This document shows, in pieces, positions 15,307 to 27,705 of a DNA stretch of 64,000 nt. The notes under the pieces were generated by a model. The model was not told the origin of the DNA and searched no databases. It saw nothing but the letters and a program-made list of their open reading frames with translations. The stretch's first letter is position 1. Every line of letters starts with the position of its first letter. The DNA lies in assembly GCF_011745625.1 (NCBI RefSeq), contig NW_027191464.1, forward strand, positions 1-64,000, written 5' to 3'. Source of the DNA: Cladosporium halotolerans. Lineage: Eukaryota. The translations under genes were made by a program, and so were the position numbers.

Positions 15307-16222
15307 CGTGTCTAAAGGAGGTTTCAAGTGAAAGTTTGAAATGAGATCGATTGGGCGGAATGGGAGAATGTGTGGTACATTTCTGTAGGGGATGCTGTTC
15401 ATATACCTCGCGCTGTTACAATCTTCTGTTGCAACAGCCAGTGCTTTGGTAGGCCTTCGTATTGCACAGCCGGACGGATCAACAGAAGCTCCTCAACCCA
15501 AGGCCGAGATGAGCTCGCGATGGCGCCCCTAATAGGCTAGGTCTTGTTTCTCTGATGCTTGCCATGACCATTGAGATATCTTGGGACCTCCAAGCCATAT
15601 GCACAGCTCGCGATGCGACCCGCATTAGGTTAGCCTGGAGATGATGTCGCCGGAGGCTTGACGAAGGATCGAGTGGCTGCAAGCCGGCGATTGTGGGACT
15701 GAAATGTGGGGCGTCGTTCGGCGATTCTGCCAGTGGATTGGGTTGTGGAGACGAATCTTGACTGCATCGATTGCGGCTGAGGGTTGCTTTAACAAATCAG
15801 GTACGATACAACACAAATGCTTAAGAACATGGATTGAGAAACGCTTGTAAACGAGAAGATGTGAATGTCTGATCTAGGAAAGACTAGTCAACAATGGCTT
15901 TAGGCGACTAACGAAGGAAGGCGAAGTGACAGAAACAGTTGAATATACTAACAGTAGCTGCCTTGGTTTACGGCCGATGTATCAAGTACGATGCGAAGGA
16001 TTTACGACCTAAATGCGGTCTAGAGTCGGCTGCAGCTAAGTGCCGACCTTCAGCTAGATCAGTCCAAAGGTTCAGCTCTGTGGCAAACATCCTTGACTGC
16101 CACAGCCGCGTTCGCAAGCGTCCTCATCGTACAACTTAATAAGAGCGGTGTTGTCCTAAAACTGCCAGTTTTGATGAGCATACCGTCGGGCTGCCCCGGC
16201 CTGATACCGGTTTCGTTCAAGC

Positions 16223-17794
16223 ATGCCCGCAAGATCTTCCGGCTGCTTCACTTGTCGAAAGCGAAAAGTCCGCTGTGATGAACGCCGACCTGGCTGTGTG
16301 CGATGTGCCCGCCACGGTGTGCAATGCTCTGGATACCTACGAGAAGAAGGGGCTCTGGACTTCAAAGATCAGACGAGCTCCACAAACCATCGTGCGAATC
16401 TACGGTACCTGAAGATCACGACGTTCCGAGGTGAGGAAGAATCGTTTGAAGGGACAGCTCTGGAGTTCGACAGCAAGATCAAGGCATCGGCCGCTTCATT
16501 GAGTACCACTAATGCTCCGCTCTTCACGATTGAAAACTGCCAACATGGTGTGCCAAACGGCTTGACTAGCGCCAACCTCAACCGAGAACAATTGTATGAA
16601 TCTTTCATGGGAATATTCAACCCTAAGAACATCAATCCTGGATCCCAAGACTTCGACTTCTTCAGAATGCTGGCGATGCTAGCACCTAGTCACTTAGTTC
16701 TACAGGATGGTCTTGATGCCCTGAGCCTGATGCAAATTGGCACGGCTCACGCAGATCAACGACTGCTCGGCGAATCACTCGTCCGATATTGCAAAGCACT
16801 TCGGGGAACAAGACAAGCATTGAACATTGGTGCCCCTGAAGATGCATTGTTCGCGACTGCAAGTGTTCTCGCAATATGCGAGTTCTTCGATCACATCAAC
16901 AAGACTCCGTCGGCTTGGCTTGGCCACCTTGTCGGAGTTGATCAGCTGTTGCTCGTTCGTGGCCCGAGTTCGCTGAAGTCGAAATTATCAATGCTGCTGT
17001 TTTACCAATCACGACATCCTGCCCTGTCAAGGTCTCTGCTACGCCGAAAGGCAGATCCGCTGTCGTCGCTCGAATGGCGAGCAATACTTAAACAAATGCC
17101 TCTGGGGCCTGCTGGAACCTCCATGGAGCTCGCACTACAAGTACCGGAACTGTTGGAACGCTACGACGCACTGGACACCGCGTCTTCAACCTTCTTGTCG
17201 GAAGCTGAAGCGCTCTTGTCTGACTGTCAGCGACTCGATCATGAGTATCAGAACTGGTACACTGACTCGCTACAACCCACCACGAAAACTGACATCGCAC
17301 CTTACTCGACGAAAAGCATCGATAGTTTCCCAACATTCGCCGCTCTGATTCGAAACCGGAAGCTATCAAACGGCTTCGTCTTCGCAGACTCCAAGCTCTC
17401 TTCCCTCTACCGTCAATACTGGTGCTGCCAATACTTCCTCCAAAGCACAATAGCGCAATTGCGCGAGTACCTCCAGACCTCCCCCGACGAGTTTCCCGGA
17501 CAACAACTCGACCAACCTCGCTCAACGAGCGACAGCCATATCGACGAAGTCGTCTTCTCACTCTGCAGGTGCATCCCCGGCCTCGCCGAGCCCATCACTG
17601 GTGCACATGGCCACATCGCGATCTTCTTGCCCTTGCGTATCGCGCTGATGCACTTTCGGTCGAGGAGACTGTGGGAGTGGGTGGGGTGGGCCGAGGAAGT
17701 GAGTGCTGGGGTCTTTTATAGGGGTATCAGGCCACCGGCTATTAAAGATGGGGATTATCCTGAGGCGAAAGCATTGTTGGAAGCCAGTGAGTAG
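16223..17794 (+). CDS. Zn(II)2Cys6 fungal transcription factor, 523 aa
   Basis: N-terminal [31 protein letters not shown] (CX2CX6CX6CX2CX6C), followed by a fungal-specific regulatory region (W.GHL.G...LL.RGP). Confidence 0.93.
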
Positions 17795-17916: not shown

Positions 17917-19393
17917 TTACTCTCTGATCCAATCAAACAACCATCTCCCAAACCACTTTGAAGGAATCTCAATCAGCCAGTACATAGCCTCGGCCGCGGG
18001 AATGGTGACAAGAAGTGTCGCGATGAAAGCTACGCCTGTGGCTTTCGAGTAACCTGACGCATCGTCGCCCATCATGTTGGTCACTGTTTTGATGCCGAGA
18101 GTGTAGACGATTATGGATTGTAGGAGAAAGTAACCTGTGATGTGGTCAGATGCTGATGCGTACGAAGGGTTCTGCCAAGCGGGACTTACTCAAAGATCGT
18201 TTACCGAGCAGAACAAGAAATCTGTTGCGGAAGATCGACTGAAGAACGCTTGAGGTCTCCAGGATGAGGGAGAAACCAATGATGATGAGATAGCAGTCGG
18301 CGCGGATTTGCGCGGCCGTAACGTCGACAGCGTAGTTCAAACCACCGGTGTTGTAGATACCCGTGTGGTAGTAGAGTTCAGCGTTTTGCAGGTCTGGGCG
18401 TGCGGCCGTCCAGATGAACTGCATGGCGAATCCGGCGATCATGAGCAGCGCGCCGACTGCCCAGAATGGAACACGAGTCTTCAAGACGGTGAAGTATGAG
18501 CCGGTTCCACTAGGCCTGAGATCCATGTTCATCACGGCGTCGGCGACGAGAAGACCAGATATTGAATACCACGCCCAAGAGTACACCCACCATGCTGTTA
18601 AGATAAAGGCGAAAGCTCCGATCACCCGCCAGCGAGCTCTTGTGTACGGAATGATGACCGTTGTCATGTAAACCGTGTAGCTCTGTTGGAATACCGCGGA
18701 GATGACCCAGAGCATCTGCGTGGGAAATGCGCGGTTTGCAGCTTGATTCTGGAAATTGTAGGTGGTCCAGAATGTCATGAAGATTGCGTTAAAGTTGGCC
18801 AGAGAATTCGGTAAAATGTACAGGTCGGTGTCCATGGTGTTAATACCGACGCGCTGAGCAAAATCCACGAGGTAGGCATTGCCGTCCGTTCCATGGGTGA
18901 AGGCAAAGTAGACTACGATCAATGCGGCGGCGACTGGGAACCAGAGTCGGATGCCACGACGGAAGACAGTACTTGCGAGAACGATTCTATTAGGCTCCAG
19001 AAGAAATGGCAAACATATTGTTCGAGCTGATAGGAAGATGATGCTTCCATAGATAAGAGTGTCGTTCCAGAACAAGACGGAGAGCGATTTTCGGAGTGCG
19101 AGATGCGCTGCAGAGCCATCTTCTTGATTTGTGCCCTTCACAGCGGCTGGAGTGAATGTTTGCAAGAAGGCCCAGAGAAATGCCATAGGCACTAGGATGC
19201 CTCTAACACCAGTCAGGTAGTCCTGGTTCTTGTCGTATGGCCTTGATGCTGTATTTGGAGATTGCTGTGGCAATCTCTTGGTGATAGAGGATGGCATCCA
19301 GGACGGCAGCCCATCGGGTCTGCTTTGGCGCCCATTCTCAACACCGTTCGGCGCCAGAGGTGAGATGTTCTCATCGCCGTGCTTCACAGCCAT
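17917..19393 (-). CDS. Acyltransferase-3 (OafA/NolL-like) integral membrane O-acyltransferase; join(19393..18190,18134..17917), 473 aa
   Basis: AT3-type motifs DYLTGVRGIL, VFRRGIRLWFP, LWVIS, LGKRSLSYFLLQ and a terminal YWLIEIPS helix; about 10 hydrophobic segments. Intron GTAAGT...CTGAC...CAG. Confidence 0.75.
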
Positions 19394-20199: not shown

Positions 20200-21669
20200 A
20201 TGGCTGCAGCTGTCGACATGGACGAGAAGAGTGGTGCAGCACCTGCTGTGCTCGAACAACAACTAGGCACTGCTCAAGCAGTGCAAGTACAGCAGCCCGA
20301 GCAGCCTGCAGACTTACCACAGTCATCAGGCATGTTGACCACTCTCTGGCGCTGGACACCGGCCATCTTTATGGTGTCCTACTTCGTCTTCTCAATATCG
20401 ATATACACCCTGGCACCAAGAGAAGCAGTCAAAGTCCTCTGGTTTCTATACTTGACCATTGGAACTTTGCTCGCTGGCACTACTCTGCTGGAGAGTTATG
20501 ATGGTTTGTCACTGCTAAGAGAGGCACGAAAGACGACCGCAAAGGTCGCTAGATCTGGCTGGAAAACTGATGCTCAACTTCCATATGTCGAGCTAATTCT
20601 GGACGATGCGGACGGCAGTGGACACGAGCGTCTGCACGCACTTCGTGAGAGCATCGCCTACCCGACCGAGAGACTACGCATCACTCTGCTCCCTGACAAT
20701 GGAGACGACGGCGCATTAGTCCATCATCTTTGTCACCTACAAGACCGCCAATCTGGATCACTGCCTGAATTTACCGCTATCTTTCGTGCCTCGCAAACAC
20801 CACATCCTCACGCTGTCAGGCACGCTGTGGAGCGGCTAGTGTCGGACAAGAAGATCGACTTCGTGCAAAGCAGGAGTGTTCTGATTTGGCCCGCCGGCGT
20901 CTCGACATTGAAAGCAATCTACTCTTCGCTGGCTGCTTTCCAACACGACGCGATTAACGGCCTCGTCATACCCGGGCGATCCTTGACCTGGGGTTTGCCT
21001 TTATCACACGGCAGCGCTATCTTCGGCCGGACATCAGCCCTGCAAAATGCGGCCGGAGCGCTGAAAGGCGCCTCTAGCAGACACAATGGTCCCGCCCTTG
21101 CTTTCTCTGCTTATGCTCAGAATCTCAAATCAGCACACGATCTCAGCGTTGTCACGTACACCCAATGCCCACCATCGCTGCTCGGCTGCATACGCATGCA
21201 GATTGAATCGACTGCTGAGTGGGTAGCGGGCCTGCCATATGTCGCGCTGGCATTCACCAAGATGAAGCAAAACTCGGCACCGAGCGAGAAATCAGACACC
21301 AACCCTGCAGGTCGTACCCTCAAGCAGCGCACCAGCATCCTCTTTGCGCTGGTCCTGACCCGCTTGGGTTCACACGCGGTCTTGCAATACTTCAGCCTCG
21401 CGCTCGCGCTTCTCTTCAACGAGGCGCCTCATTCGGCTGCGGAGTTCTCGACGCTGATATTCTTCCCTTACCACATATCTATCTGGCTCATCGTATCAGG
21501 CCTGATATGCCTTGTTGGGACGGTTGCCATGGCTCACAAAGCAGCGTCTGAGTATGCGCCTCCCTCATGGGCATTCCCGTTCTTGGTGGTGTTGTACCCT
21601 TTCATGCTATTGGTACAGGCGTTCGTGGACGTATACGCGCAAGCTGGGATTTTTCTGGGAGTCTTGTGA
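20200..21669 (+). CDS. Membrane-bound glycosyltransferase family 2-like protein with degenerate catalytic motifs, 489 aa
   Basis: Two N-terminal TM helices, a soluble GT-A-like domain (LPYVELI, IAYPTERLRI, PHPHAVRHAVERL, IDFVQSR, PGRSLTWG, HDLSVVTY) and three C-terminal TM helices. No DxD, TED or QxxRW motif. Confidence 0.7.
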   Translation: MAAAVDMDEKSGAAPAVLEQQLGTAQAVQVQQPEQPADLPQSSGMLTTLWRWTPAIFMVSYFVFSISIYTLAPREAVKVLWFLYLTIGTLLAGTTLLESYDGLSLLREARKTTAKVARSGWKTDAQLPYVELILDDADGSGHERLHALRESIAYPTERLRITLLPDNGDDGALVHHLCHLQDRQSGSLPEFTAIFRASQTPHPHAVRHAVERLVSDKKIDFVQSRSVLIWPAGVSTLKAIYSSLAAFQHDAINGLVIPGRSLTWGLPLSHGSAIFGRTSALQNAAGALKGASSRHNGPALAFSAYAQNLKSAHDLSVVTYTQCPPSLLGCIRMQIESTAEWVAGLPYVALAFTKMKQNSAPSEKSDTNPAGRTLKQRTSILFALVLTRLGSHAVLQYFSLALALLFNEAPHSAAEFSTLIFFPYHISIWLIVSGLICLVGTVAMAHKAASEYAPPSWAFPFLVVLYPFMLLVQAFVDVYAQAGIFLGVL

Positions 21670-22621
21670 CCGGAGATCGGGTCAAACAAACAAATGCACA
21701 TAATCCTAATCGGTTTCACGTCGGATGTAGAAAAATCGTCAAACGTTACGCATTGCGCTCGTGCTCCCGCACATGTCAGCTGCAGGCCTTGCATTGCCCG
21801 CCTTATCATAGTCACACAGTAAATGTAGCAGAATGATCATTAATAGCCTGCCTAGCTGCAAGACAGCCATGCAGTAGCTGCAATTCCTGGTAGGGCCGCG
21901 TCATCGCTCTGCAGGTAGCCCCGATCACGCATGGGCGATGCTATGCGGTAGTGCATGTGGACTTTCGCATGGGTGACCGGGATTGCCATGCTGCGAGGCG
22001 AGCGCCACCGAAGACTCTCTGGGACTGATGGAAAAAGACTAAAATGGTGCCACGGGCGAGAGCATGGGCTTCTGACGCTGATCAGATGTTGTGGTATTTT
22101 CCCTCAGACGATAGCTCAGCCCTGTACGGAAAATATTGATAGAGTTGCTCCACTCCACCCACGTTACCCTTGACGTGACCAAGAAACATCGGCATCTACG
22201 GCAGACGGAGGATTGAAGCTGCAGCACCAAGTGCTTGGAAGCGGAAAGCCGAGAGCTCTGGCTCCGGAACCAGGCACACGCTGCAGAGGGTCAGCCAGCG
22301 CCACCCAATTCCGCAAACGCCTCCCCTCCTCTCCGCACCAACGGCTCGCGCGCCAAAATATCTAGCCTCGATGGGGGATGCTCGATAGCAGCGGCGATCC
22401 TTGAGCCCTCGCGATTAGCTGCGTTATAACTGGCCCTACTCGGCCTTGTCTCGCCTCACGTGGAGCGGCGTGCGGTGGTGGGTTCGCTGGCATGGCGGGC
22501 AAGTAAGTGCTTTCTTCTTCCTCTTTGCTGTCGTCTGGAGTGATATCTGTACGCCTCATTGTTATTCCGCTGGTGTGTCGTGGGTTGGCGGTGATGTACG
22601 GTCGTTACTTCTGATATAGCC

Positions 22622-25600
22622 ATGACTCCGTCCTGGCTGCCGCTCGTTGTTTTGATCTATGCGGGCCTATTTGGCCTGGCGCATGGACAGAATGAGACCG
22701 ACACCGGACAGCTACTCGAATCGAGCGACAACAATGCCGACAACGAGGATGGACTGAATGGCGCCACAGGGAGCGGTGAAGCTGAAGATATTGCTTCCAG
22801 TGTCGTCCCAGCCGACTGCCACTGCGGCTTCCTCGACCCAGTGACCGGCCGCTCATATACGGACTCGCTAATTGTGTATTTCAACGAAACCGGAGAGCTT
22901 GGCGACGCCTTCAATGTCTCGAGCTATGAGCACCCGTACGAGAAAGGTTGGGGCATCTACTTCCGCGAAGGTGCTCTTGAATCGAATGTTTACTACGAGA
23001 ACGGCTCGACTTGGAATCTGTCCCCGGGATGGCTCAACCTCAACGTGTCCGCAAGAACATCAGACCACCTGGTGAGCGGCGCAGAAATCGAGACGAAGCG
23101 ACAGGATATGCTGTATGGTACTTTCCGGACATTCCTGCGCTCAGCGGCACCTTATGCGGGCGGCGGCAGTGCGCTCTCGATGAGGCTGCTGCATAACGAT
23201 AGTATCTCGGCGGAGCTAGATCTTCTCAGCATGGACGACTCCGGCAACACGGCCAAGTTTGCTGCCACTACGAATGGGCAAATTCCTTTGTCCGAAAACA
23301 CTGTGAACTACACGACTCTGCAAGGTCCAGATTACAACCAGAGCCCTTGGGACTTCTGGGAGTATCGCATGGATTGGAATGAGGAGAACATCGAGTGGTT
23401 TTCTGGAGTCAACAAAACTCGGGCTATGCCGGCAGCCAACTGGACTGTGCCTGTCAGTTTCTCGCTCAAGCATTGGTCGTTGGGATTGCCAAATTGGATG
23501 CAAGGGCCTCCTCTCAACGACAGCGGTGCCGCAGTTGGTTGGATGAGGCTATTCTTCAACTCCTCTGTGAGTTCTTCGGACGAGCGGCCTCTCAATTGTT
23601 CGACAGAGCACTACTGCTCTACAGAGGACGAAACCCTGAGGGTCAGTACTCCATTCACGGCAGCTATGGAAGTGAAACCTGGGGATCTCCTTGAAATCGA
23701 TGAAGATGTGGAGAGCCGAAGCACTGTCGCTATCGCTTTGGCGATTGCGAGCGTAGTGGTCACTTCTGCCTTGATTATACTTGGTCTGTCGAAGAAAGCC
23801 ATCTCAAAGAAGCCGGCCGCAAGACCGCCTCTTAAGTCACACCAATCTGACGTCGAGCTCGGCCAAGTACAGACAACTGGGTATCAATCCCGCGGACCAT
23901 TCAAACGCTCCAGCAACGACATGCGACGACCGATGCCGGACAAGCATCAATCGATGATCAGCCAGAATCCCCTGCTTGAACAGACCGACTCGCAAGCTGG
24001 AAGCTCTGTCCACCTTGGTGGGTTTGCAACGCCTTTCGAATCTAGAGATACTCTCCAGTACAGCATGCACGACCGGCGAGATTCTGTAAAAAGCCCATTC
24101 GGCCCGGTGGATTCCATCACGCCTACTTCTAGCGACCGCGTGTATTCTTCTCAAGCGGGTTGGGAGGAAGAACAGCATCATTTACGCCACCGCGTTCTTC
24201 CTGCCAGCGAGGGCCTTGATACAGGGAGTTCCCGAGCTCTTCCCAACGACTCGAAAGTCGAATCGGTCGTAGCAACAGGCAGCGCACTCCCAGCTGAGAA
24301 TAATGCTGGCCTTGCTGGTGCAGTACCTGGTGCAAATGAGGCTTTAAAGCTATCCGACCCTATGGCAGCGTCTGCGAAGCCAGTGGCTGCGGGTCAGATA
24401 CCGCAACAGCGTACCCGAGTTGATTACTTGGCCGGACTGGTTGCTCTTTGCTCCCTTCTGGTGGCAAGTACTCACTTTGTACTCACCTATGCTCCCTCCA
24501 CCGTCATGGAATATATTGATCAACATTACACGAGTGAGTACTGGGCTCGACGCACGATCGAACCTTTTTTCTTCAACAACATTTGGACCGGCCTGTTCTT
24601 CACCACCTCGACTCGGTTTCTGACCACAGGATATCTACGCAAGGGCGACCTCAAATTCATTGCCGAAAAAACAGTGTGCCGGACACCTAGATTCATGATC
24701 CCCATTGTCTCCGTCATCTTACTAGAATACTTTCTGATGGATGTGGGTGCTGTGACCTATTTGGAGTATCTCCCCAGCATTACCTGGTCACCCTGGCCTA
24801 TGACTTCAGTTTACCCCAATTTTGGATGGTTCATCAATGAGACATTACAGCTTATTTACTTGATCCCAAACGCGGCACCGCAGTTGACATGGAATTACTG
24901 CACAGGTAAGGAAAGAATCATGTGACTACAGAACACCCGCTGACATCCCCATAGGAGTTCTATGGACGATTCCAGTACAGCTGCAAAACAGCTGGCTCGT
25001 ACTCCTTGGGGTCGTTGTCATCATGGAAATCAAGACTCCCTGGAAACGCTTCAGCTATTATGCTTTCTGCATCGTCAACCACTGGTATGCACTATCCTGG
25101 GGATCATATTTCTGGTGTGGTCTCCTTCTAGCCGACCTCGACATCACCTTCAAGTACCGCAAGTACATCCAGTCTCGCGCCTACGTCCTCTACCCACTCA
25201 TCATCCTCGCCTGCATCATGGTATTCTGCTCACTAGGAAATGACCTTCTTTCTGTCTGGACAGGCTACTCCTTCTCCACCAACGAAAAAGGCATCCACCC
25301 CGAGATTACGACTGGCCTCCGAATCCGAGTAACTCCATCCCATGGATACCCAGAATACACCCAGCCCAAACTCAACGGCCTGGTGGGCTGCGTGGGCGCG
25401 CAATTCATCGTCGAGATATCTGTCTGGGCGCAGAAGTTCCTGACCACCAAGCCTTTCTTGTTTCTATTCCCGCACGTCTTTACGATCTATCTGATTCACG
25501 GCCTCGTCTTCTGGTCCATCGGCAGCCTGGCCTGCGTTTACTTCGCTTCAATTGGCCTCGAGTACTGGGTCAACATCTTACTGGTGGCGTTGATCAGCTT

Positions 25601-25802
25601 CTCCACTTTGTTCCTTATCTTGCCTGTTGTGACGCCTGTTATGGAGATGCTGGGCAAAGAGATGACAAGGAATATCTGGCTTTCGGCGAGCGAGGAGCCG
25701 GTGGCGTGGAAGCCGACTAGCTGGCCGCTTGAGAAGGAAGAGGTGGAAGCGGGGTTCAGCGATTCGACTTCGCCGAGGAGGAATGTCAATTTGGAATCAT
25801 AA
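22622..25802 (+). CDS. GH16-like (ConA/beta-jelly-roll) ectodomain fused to an acyltransferase-3 membrane domain; join(22622..24905,24955..25802), 1043 aa
   Basis: Signal peptide; GH16-like domain (CHCGF, VSGAEIETKRQDMLYGTFR, FWEYRMDW, LKHWSLG...WMQGPP); one TM helix; disordered linker; AT3 domain (RVDYLAGL...HF, FFTTSTRF, CRTPR, LWTIPVQLQNSW, FTIYLIHG). The 49-nt intron GTAAGG...GCTGAC...TAG joins the two ORFs in phase. Confidence 0.8.
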
Positions 25803-26305: not shown

Positions 26306-27705
26306 ATGTCGGCACAATCACATACAGGGCAGCCGGCCCATCCTGACCCAGAGAAGGCTGGAACGACAGACTTGATCGAACACGCCCCGTCGAATGAGAC
26401 TCCCAAAGACACCAAACCGTGGATTGCCCTCGATACCGCTGATTTTTGGCAACTGTCTACCTTCGACAAGCTTGGGGCGGTCTTCCAAGTGTCGACGGTC
26501 GTCCTATGCATCCTCCTCTGTCCCACAGGCCTCGTGGACTCTTTCAGATCCGACTTCACCAACTGCGACGACAAGTCGCCGTTCCCGCAAGCTGTGTTGT
26601 CTGCAATCTTGGCCCTTTGTCTTTGTAGCTTGGCCGGAGGGTTGTCATCCGCCATTGGCACCGCTCGCATTGTAATCACAGAGTCGAATGGTTTGACGCC
26701 GGATGCGAGGGAGAGGAGAAGAGTGCGGGCGCCTCGCTACCTGCTTGCTGCTGTCGTGCCTGGCCAGTTCCTGGCCGCTTTGATGCTTGGTCAGACTGCG
26801 TATCGGACGGCACAGGCGTATCTAAGCTGGAGCCCAGTGCCTGTCCTCGCTATTGTAGCTTTGTAAGTCACTGATACTCGGAGAGAGCCTGAGGGAGGAA
26901 CAAGCTGACTTCAAATAGTTCTGCTTGCATGGCATCCGGTCTCTGGAATGCCATCTTGGCTCTCTTAATCCATCGCACGACTTGGAGCCCGGTGGACCTC
27001 AAGGTCTCCGAAGGTATGACAGCCTGCGACATCGCACTTCCCCAACCACATCGCTGACATTGCATCCCCCAGAGAAATCCAATAACGAAACCGCCGAAGA
27101 ATCTTCCAACGATCAAAGCTGGCTCTTCGACACCACCCTCCAATCCTTCCTCTCCCTCCCCGCCCTCGACCGCGCCGCAATCCTAGCCAACCCTCTCGCC
27201 CTCGCCTCAGGCCTCGCTGTAATTCTCACCACCAGCGCCCTCCTCTGGACCGAGCCCTGCGGCACCAAAGAGCGCAAAGCGCTCATGGAGGCGTCTGAGA
27301 CGGCTACTCAGGTCGTCTGCGCCACGTTGTCCATGCACATGACGATCGTGCCGGTGCTGCAGTTCCGCGCTGGCCAGCCTTTCAAGGGCGAGAAGCCGAA
27401 GCGCTGGGCGGTCGGGTTCCCGGCTGTGTTCTTCTGTATTCATGGTGGGCTGCTCGTGGCGTTGGCTTACACGATGCGGACTTCTACCTATGGTCTACAG
27501 CTCGTGCGAGCACAGGAGTGCGTTGCTGCGTGAGTAGTGCCTGTTTGATTTAACCGTTCGTGGACTGGTTGCTGATCTTTTCCCTAGGGTCATGTATTTC
27601 ACGTGCGGAGTGTGCAGCTTCAAGCTCATGCTCAACACGAACTTCAACGAGCCTTTGCCGCAAGAAGAGACTGTTGAGGCCGATGCCGGCACTCGCAATG
27701 AGTGA
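26306..27705 (+). CDS. Hypothetical multi-pass membrane protein with weak TPT/nucleotide-sugar-transporter resemblance; join(26306..26862,26919..27013,27073..27529,27588..27705), 408 aa
   Basis: Four exons join in phase through GTAAGT, GTATGA and GTGAGT introns, each with a GCTGAC/GCTGAT branch site. About 8-9 hydrophobic segments. The family assignment is tentative. Confidence 0.6.

Follow-up and report, generated by a model that had tools for sequence, protein, structure and literature searches.

We analyzed the first 64,000 nucleotides of contig NW_027191464.1 of Cladosporium halotolerans (assembly GCF_011745625.1; this whole stretch is referred to as the window), which encode a protein that joins a GH16-like ectodomain to an acyltransferase-3 (AT3) domain. 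The fusion gene begins with an ATG at 22622, its stop codon ends at 25802 on the plus strand, and its product is 1043 amino acids (aa) long. Our favored explanation, which we consider reasonably likely, is a membrane O-acyltransferase of two subunits in which the fusion carries out the transfer. The fusion belongs to a conserved fungal trio of genes (a stand-alone AT3, a family 2 glycosyltransferase (GT2) and the fusion) that would serve an acylated surface or extracellular glycan; the trio probably decorates a surface sugar polymer. For the putative activity, acyl donor, acceptor and compartment we propose the following. The acyl-coenzyme A (acyl-CoA) would enter from the cytosol, and the fusion would hold the CoA by its remaining basic residues R665, K683, R687 and R690 and transfer the acyl group via the outer-side residues His618, His943 and Tyr940 to a glycan at the outer or luminal side of the membrane, with the stand-alone AT3, which has neither His, serving as the structural or regulatory partner on which the fusion depends. 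The GH16 domain, a dead enzyme, might be a lid or adaptor on the outer face that cleaves no chain. The GT2 of this lineage may no longer polymerize and might be retained as a scaffold or channel, in which case a different synthase must supply the acceptor. A more specific form of this proposal is only tentative: an obligate ascomycete heterodimer, dividing its active-site residues between the subunits (CoA-side Arg/Ser versus outer-side His/Tyr) and capped by a dead GH16 domain, would acylate an undescribed surface glycan, with the lineage's synthase a pseudo-enzyme and the polymer made elsewhere.

The three genes were consistently found together. The initial annotation had missed the two conserved partners of the fusion, as well as the degeneracy of the GT2 and the loss of DxxR from the AT3 domain of the fusion itself. 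Both partners lay upstream in every one of the 28 fusion loci that extend 6 kb or more upstream, a set that includes near-copies, and they occurred in several orders and orientations; neighboring locus tags in named genomes are LTR08_004378/004380, KC361_g8970/g8968 and R9X50_00480200/00480000. Fusions were recorded in Dothideomycetes, Talaromyces, Endocarpon, Candelaria, Monilinia and six smut-group genera, and the nearest named relatives of the window proteins are Dothideomycetes, e.g. Cryoendolithus and Rachicladosporium. Databases label the trio proteins merely as GH16-domain or AT3-domain hypotheticals, and no description of the fusion or the trio was found in a literature search that left subscription papers mostly outside and excluded supplements. 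Four entries assigned to Quercus suber (P0236, P0384, P0380 and P0089) are trio proteins, probably representing fungal DNA in that assembly; P0236 joins a degenerate GT2 and the fusion in one gene model.

The initial annotation had assigned the C-terminal domain of the fusion to the AT3 family. This assignment is supported by a homologue's model. The Pfam family PF01757 matched 15 of 33 aligned members, with the smut-type fusions exceeding the cut-off, and matched neither exon half of the window fusion, nor the spliced protein of a 71% relative (P0009). The AT3 domain of a close intronless homologue, L044 (sharing 82% and 72% identity with the two halves of the window protein), was modeled with a pLDDT of 76. 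Its structural matches were HGSNAT (Z 14.8, root-mean-square deviation (rmsd) 4.4, 288 residues aligned) and GWT1 (Z 10.8, rmsd 4.7, 276 aligned), the next one following at Z 6.5; a Foldseek search of the same model against the PDB returned nothing at E≤0.001. The model thus indicates that the AT3 domain of the fusion has the ten-helix transmembrane acyltransferase (TmAT) fold. HGSNAT and GWT1 share this fold with it at about 9% identity, and they act on a different acceptor.

We compared the two AT3 proteins of the trio using the family motif definitions given in PMC12423673. In transmembrane helix (TMH) 1 of the fusions, Arg was present in 11/133 aligned rows and His in 117/133, the window protein reading A604-x-x-V607 with H618. 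In TMH9, 58 rows lacking the Arg kept His (58/58) and Tyr (57/58), and both Gly (0/58) and Ser were lost. The fusions also retain F659 of TMH2 (118/121), R687 and R690 of the TMH3 RxxR (115/116), G818 of TMH6 (69/71) and Y940 of TMH9 (64/68), and the TMH2 Gly is missing. The stand-alone AT3 showed the reverse pattern, with Arg in TMH1 in 102/102 rows and His in 0/120. In its TMH9, G-x-R-S was found in all 21 rows and His was replaced by Gln in all 21, with Tyr mostly replaced by Phe; these 21 are the spliced rows among 72, the other 51 having been dropped as unspliced at the C-terminus. Both AT3s have the TMH3 arginines and an Arg at the end of TMH2, and they are paralogues (hhalign probability 99.7). 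As read from the alignments, the two AT3s hold complementary motif sets, the cytosol-side Arg in the stand-alone protein and the outer-side His in the fusion. The ratio of nonsynonymous to synonymous substitution rates (dN/dS) was 0.012-0.055 for the AT3 domain of the fusion, whose N-terminal half is 93% identical to relatives (dN/dS 0.012), and 0.11 for the stand-alone AT3 between loci L003 and L005.

The two AT3s are also predicted to interact. We modeled the complex with the Meristemomyces fusion and stand-alone AT3 (71% and 59% identical to those of the window), and the interface score ipSAE was 0.82, 0.82 and 0.81 in three runs sharing at least 80% of their contacts, compared to 0.00 for the best of three controls; the pLDDT of the partner was 83. 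The mark used for this test is reached by 51/78 solved pairs, 2/108 mismatched pairs and 7/44 blind neighbors. The predicted interface is pseudo-symmetric, formed by equivalent helices of both chains, and just 53 and 3 of 2000 random residue sets were as conserved as its two sides. In the window proteins, 37/48 and 37/49 of the interface residues are identical. The modeling predicts a pseudo-symmetric heterodimer of the stand-alone AT3 with the AT3 domain of the fusion.

The complementary partition of motifs and the predicted heterodimer might also suggest a relay, in which the stand-alone AT3 binds acyl-CoA through its cytosol-side residues and the acyl group then crosses the dimer to reach the His residues of the fusion, neither protein being an enzyme alone. 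A point in its favor is that eight complete fusions of the DxxR type, seven of them from named smut-group fungi, mostly retain both motif sets, and that DxxR was lost on a single branch (15 rows, support 100) of a quick AT3 tree made with FastTree. We consider the relay unlikely, since the CoA and catalytic sites of TmAT proteins share one pore in one subunit (PMC12423673) and an inter-subunit carrier was not seen. In addition, the stand-alone AT3 branches outside both fusion types in the same tree, which carries a long-branch warning, and so seems older than the loss of DxxR; in the fusion, the CoA-site residues Phe, RxxR, Gly and Tyr are also still in place.

The GH16-like character of the ectodomain, suggested by the initial annotation, was confirmed by its model and by structural searches. 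The model, built on 24 sequences with a pLDDT of 84.8, matched Bacillus lichenases best (1mac, Z 20.2, rmsd 2.5, 199 residues aligned), and Foldseek aligned it to 5nbo with an E-value of 1.7e-11. The Pfam family PF00722 scored 19.5 bits on the ectodomain (E 7e-4), below its gathering score of 22, and was matched at E≤0.01 in 27/33 aligned members. Searching solved structures with the single sequence gave no meaningful match; a profile search did find relatives. The E-x-D-x-E motif is of the non-bulge GH16 type (PMC6827312). Stand-alone fungal relatives reading N-D-T-Q-E-I-D-M-E-F-L-S align without gaps to N192-D-S-I-S196-A-E198-L-D200-L-L-S of the window, placing S196 at the nucleophile position, E198 at the helper position and D200 at the acid/base position. 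On this alignment both catalytic Glu are replaced. The loss of the catalytic motif had been noted from the start, but with one Glu lost instead of both and with two proposed registers that each lie two residues late.

We surveyed the motif in 204 proteins, of which 187 rows cover it (127 AT3-bearing and 60 without AT3, many close relatives included). The nucleophile Glu was found in 0/127 AT3-bearing rows, 82 of which have Ser at that position; the full E-D-E was present in 28/60 rows without AT3, and most of the remaining rows resemble fusion fragments. Position 198 is E in 66/127 fusions and position 200 has D in 69, N in 36 and S in 12, with close relatives reading S-E-N and S-D-S. The strand is unbroken and does keep two acidic residues that face the cleft, which might allow an active glycosidase or transglycosidase working through E198 and D200 in a shifted register; with neither residue conserved across the fusions, we regard this as hardly credible. 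E198 as the nucleophile itself was rejected on the alignment to the intact relatives, and Ser196 as an SGNH-like acyl acceptor was rejected given that merely 33 of 68 fusion representatives have Ser there. Elsewhere in the genome, the ectodomain has a single GH16 match, a stand-alone relative, L002 (G000:C217:1023506-1024096, minus strand), which reads N-E-T-Q-S-I-A-I-D-F-P-S and has itself lost the catalytic motif, with Ser at the nucleophile position.

The initial annotation proposed that the ectodomain is a glucan-binding module that presents the acceptor to the acyltransferase. In this proposal, which is compatible with our model of a two-subunit acyltransferase, the domain would act as a lectin, binding beta-glucan in the old cleft. 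The fold is intact and strongly constrained (dN/dS 0.05-0.065, compared to about 0.25 for the linker), His284, Trp285 and the GPP loop are kept, and Glu-to-Ser variants of GH16 enzymes have been crystallized with bound oligosaccharides (4bpz, 4bow). However, the proposal is weakened by the state of the cleft. Position 188 is F or Y in 26/27 intact relatives and position 190 is Y, F or W in 27/28, and both positions, which would line the substrate cleft judging by the lichenase alignment and strand alternation, are variable and mostly non-aromatic in the 68 fusion representatives (R188 and L190 in the window). The Trp preceding GPP varies among fusions, and the nucleophile-position Ser is far from general. 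The blocks conserved only in fusions (the I-V-Y-F-N-E-T strand, the E-K-G-W and H-L-V loops and the C-terminal L-R-x-S) lie away from the catalytic strand, as would fit a protein interface or a new site. We regard a lectin role as possible but doubtful. The models and the motif survey support the claim that the GH16 domain of this membrane AT3 protein is non-catalytic and faces outward. We read the ectodomain as a dead enzyme that has been retained either for its shape or for a new surface; binding in the old cleft, though possible, is unsupported.

The third member of the trio, the GT2-like gene at 20218-21669, has Atlas features scoring 0.96 to Glyco_trans_2_3 clusters. For the intact GT2, 1916 relatives were found at E≤1e-30 among 7999 candidates scored, the only solved relatives being BcsA cellulose synthases, and DxD, TED and QxxRW occur together in 110/120 GT2 homologues. 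The GT2s of the window, L003, L005 and L011 lack all three motifs, and seven distant rows keep all three. Five degenerate GT2s form one long-stemmed clade within the fungal family (SH-aLRT 100, in a quick tree with long branches flagged), and the degenerate GT2 evolves under purifying selection (dN/dS 0.10-0.13). Several related fungi hold intact GT2 paralogues elsewhere in the genome.

These features raise the possibility that the whole trio is non-enzymatic in this lineage and functions as a scaffold, sensor or regulator of wall synthesis, given that the window shows degeneracy in all four sets of catalytic motifs (a dead synthase, a dead hydrolase and two incomplete acyltransferases) and yet the three domain types tested are under purifying selection, and that the degenerate GT2s group as a single clade. 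The same AT3 motif pattern is found where the GT2 is intact, so the pattern is not a lineage-specific decay, and the near-identity of the N-terminal AT3 half among relatives, with its low dN/dS, also speaks against this explanation; we find it improbable. We think it less probable still that the acceptor is a glycolipid or a secreted small molecule instead of a polymer. Fungal AT3s do occur in natural-product clusters (PMC12423673), and the dead GT2 leaves a polymer acceptor unassured here, but the three motifs of the GT2 relatives and their solved BcsA relatives point to a processive polymer synthase, and no backbone gene recurs beside the trio in the loci that were inspected by eye.

Several points weigh against our favored explanation. 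The TMH1 Arg is essential in HGSNAT, OafB and OacB (PMC12423673); its absence from the fusion suggests that the fusion may not transfer alone, or at all. Both the complex and the AT3 model were computed on homologues of the window proteins, and some blind neighbors (7/44) also pass the complex test. Since the chains are paralogous and use equivalent surfaces, and the controls contained no homodimers, the pass supports pairing but may reflect only a general tendency to dimerize. One fusion locus, L047, retains the nucleophile-position Glu, with Asp at the acid/base position. Finally, no intact GT2 paralogue was found in the fungus's own genome with two intact relatives and PF13632 as queries, after a loose first screen of a 691-contig assembly that is possibly incomplete, and the degenerate copy alone matched the family; with the linked synthase apparently dead, the acceptor is left unexplained in this genome.

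The bacterial relatives of the GT2 provide independent support for a synthase-plus-acylation role. Among the 80 loci of its nearest bacterial relatives, mostly cyanobacterial, 24 have an adjoining AT3-type gene. One of these neighbors was confirmed by Pfam, and the acid-G-x-R-x10-H motif was present in 17/26 reading frames; the fungal GH16 and AT3 profiles matched nothing in the 80 loci. In filamentous cyanobacteria (L104, L109, L136, L163 and L170, with 19 more bacterial loci), a GT2 sharing about 35-40% identity with its fungal counterpart lies beside an AT3-type gene, a synthase-acyltransferase pair that is apparently unstudied. IcaC of the staphylococcal icaADBC operon is thought to acylate the exported polymer (PMC12423673). 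Like icaADBC and the cyanobacterial pairs, the trio links a processive GT2 to a membrane AT3; it differs from them in its two AT3 paralogues with complementary motif losses, the predicted heterodimer, the N-terminal dead GH16 domain and, in this lineage, the dead GT2. The intact trio GT2 scores far below the cut-offs of PgaC/IcaA and CelA. It resembles the fungal mixed-linkage glucan synthase Tft1/CelA in its Glyco_trans_2_3-like Pfam type and as a putative maker of wall glycan; compared by description, Tft1 exceeds 558 aa against about 507 consensus positions for the trio GT2, and the switch motif stated for Tft1 is absent from the consensus. The neighbor of celA is a DUF3431 gene (PMC5519750). 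Adjacent gene numbers provide two leads made without sequence comparison: NCU04167 (GT2, raised in perithecia) and NCU04168 (GH16) of N. crassa (PMC6796803), and EfM3.080040 and EfM3.080050 of Epichloe, both raised in choke stroma (PMC6921078).

The fusion had been likened to OafA and OatA. The likeness holds insofar as OafA, OafB and OatA also combine an AT3 domain with an outer-side soluble domain in one chain with one extra transmembrane (TM) helix, but it is loose. AT3-SGNH proteins carry their SGNH domain at the C-terminus and require it for acyl transfer (PMC9558356), whereas the extra domain of the fusion is N-terminal, non-catalytic and of GH16 fold; Pfam and structural searches found no C-terminal SGNH domain in the fusion, which also lacks the TMH1 Arg that is essential in OafB. 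DxxR is missing in GWT1 too (PMC12423673). With Bacillus lichenases, Crh transglycosylases and the uncharacterized fungal stand-alone E-I-D-M-E-F-L-S family, possibly GH16_22 or GH16_23, the ectodomain shares the fold and the unbroken catalytic strand, and with non-bulge GH16 enzymes it shares the R-x-D-x-x-Y-G and H-W-S-x-G...G-P-P blocks. Unlike those enzymes, it is membrane-anchored and fused and has lost both catalytic Glu and two cleft aromatics. Non-catalytic proteins make up about 9% of GH16_4 and about 1% elsewhere in GH16 (PMC6827312), and none fused to AT3 appears in the literature consulted. The system works like the bacterial GT2-plus-AT3 systems and has GH16 and TmAT folds, yet it lacks the GH16 catalytic and AT3 DxxR signatures and is not an AT3-SGNH system.

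Few eukaryotic AT3 proteins are functionally characterized, with acceptors unknown (PMC9558356). The occurrence of the trio across Dothideomycetes, Eurotiomycetes, Leotiomycetes and lichen fungi, with the fusion also in smuts, points to an undescribed acylated fungal glycan. If true, the complementary-motif heterodimer would bear on how AT3s without SGNH complete acyl transfer and on whether this requires a partner, and the pseudo-synthase clade highlights a role of the machinery beyond polymerization.

The gene model on which this analysis is based was predicted by the initial annotation, and its architecture was confirmed: a hydrophobic N-terminus read as a signal peptide, a single TM helix, a polar linker of about 200 aa, a multi-TM C-terminal domain and 14 N-x-S/T sequons, which lie in residues 1-370 (16 in the whole protein). 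The coordinates are listed in Table 1. The basic stretch that follows the TM helix suggests that the linker is cytosolic.

Table 1. Features of the fusion gene and of its neighbors in the window.
Feature	Coordinates	Strand	Remarks
Exon 1	22622..24905	+	residues 1-761: signal peptide, GH16-like domain, TM helix, linker, first half of AT3
Intron	24906..24954	+	49 nt, GTAAGG...CATAG, GT..AG
Exon 2	24955..25802	+	residues 762-1043, second half of AT3
Signal peptide	22622..22687	+	residues ~1-22, judged by hydropathy alone
GH16 beta-jelly-roll, non-bulge (lichenase/Crh-like) type	22802..23671	+	residues 61-350; glycosylated, catalytically disabled
Ex-catalytic strand S196-A-E198-L-D200 (replacing E-x-D-x-E)	23207..23221	+	from alignment with intact relatives
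Single TM helix, then basic stretch	23720..23791	+	residues ~367-390; putative topology
Polar linker, ~200 aa	23792..24412	+	fast-evolving by dN/dS
AT3 TMH1 motif A604-x-x-V607-x10-H618	24431..24475	+	DxxR lost, His retained
AT3 TMH9 motif F933-P-H-V-F-T-I-Y940-L-I-H943	25467..25499	+	Gly and Ser lost, Tyr and His retained
GT2 synthase-like neighbor (pseudo-synthase)	20218..21669	+	without DxD, TED, QxxRW; purifying selection
Stand-alone AT3 paralogue	17917..19393	-	473 aa; intron 18189-18135; Arg64 and G397-x-R-S400 present, both His absent
Candidate intron in the 5' untranslated region	22503..22619	+	GTAAGT...TAG; ends 2 bases before ATG; predicted from sequence

The in-phase intron is supported by a contig of run X9, which skips these 49 nt with GT..AG ends; the contig, from a close relative mostly 95-99% alike, has exon-only coverage and is presumed to be of RNA origin. 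A contig of run X16 skips the 55-nt intron of the stand-alone AT3, and no contig covers the fusion gene end to end. GT introns of 49-52 nt occupy the same site in six close loci and are missing in most distant loci. The joining of the two domains holds regardless of the intron, since one open frame (22595-24925) holds the GH16 domain, TM helix, linker and first half of AT3. Of 41 metagenome loci in which all three query parts are present, 27 likewise have a single frame that extends from the last GH16 match through the whole AT3 match. These shared frames rule out two separate genes. Database entries include full-length fusion proteins of about 1000-1200 aa; the database model of a close relative, P0011, reads through the intron into a wrong frame, and some of the listed full lengths are mis-spliced.

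Upstream of the start codon, the TAG two bases ahead of the ATG was present in all 8 close loci inspected. If the candidate intron there is spliced, an upstream ATG at 22492 opens a short out-of-frame open reading frame (ORF) across the start codon; X9 and X16 contigs read part of 22492-22619 unspliced.

An ORF at 16205-17794 (+), which opens with a Zn2Cys6-type cysteine pattern, adjoins the trio in the window and lies beside it in no related locus, suggesting that it is probably not a trio member. On the other side, two small hydrophobic ORFs at 26306-26866 and 26919-27533 (+) belong to no Pfam family and are both syntenic only in L009. An X9 contig of depth 17 joins 26862 to 26922, a 59-nt skip with non-canonical ends, and the two ORFs may therefore be one transcript or gene.

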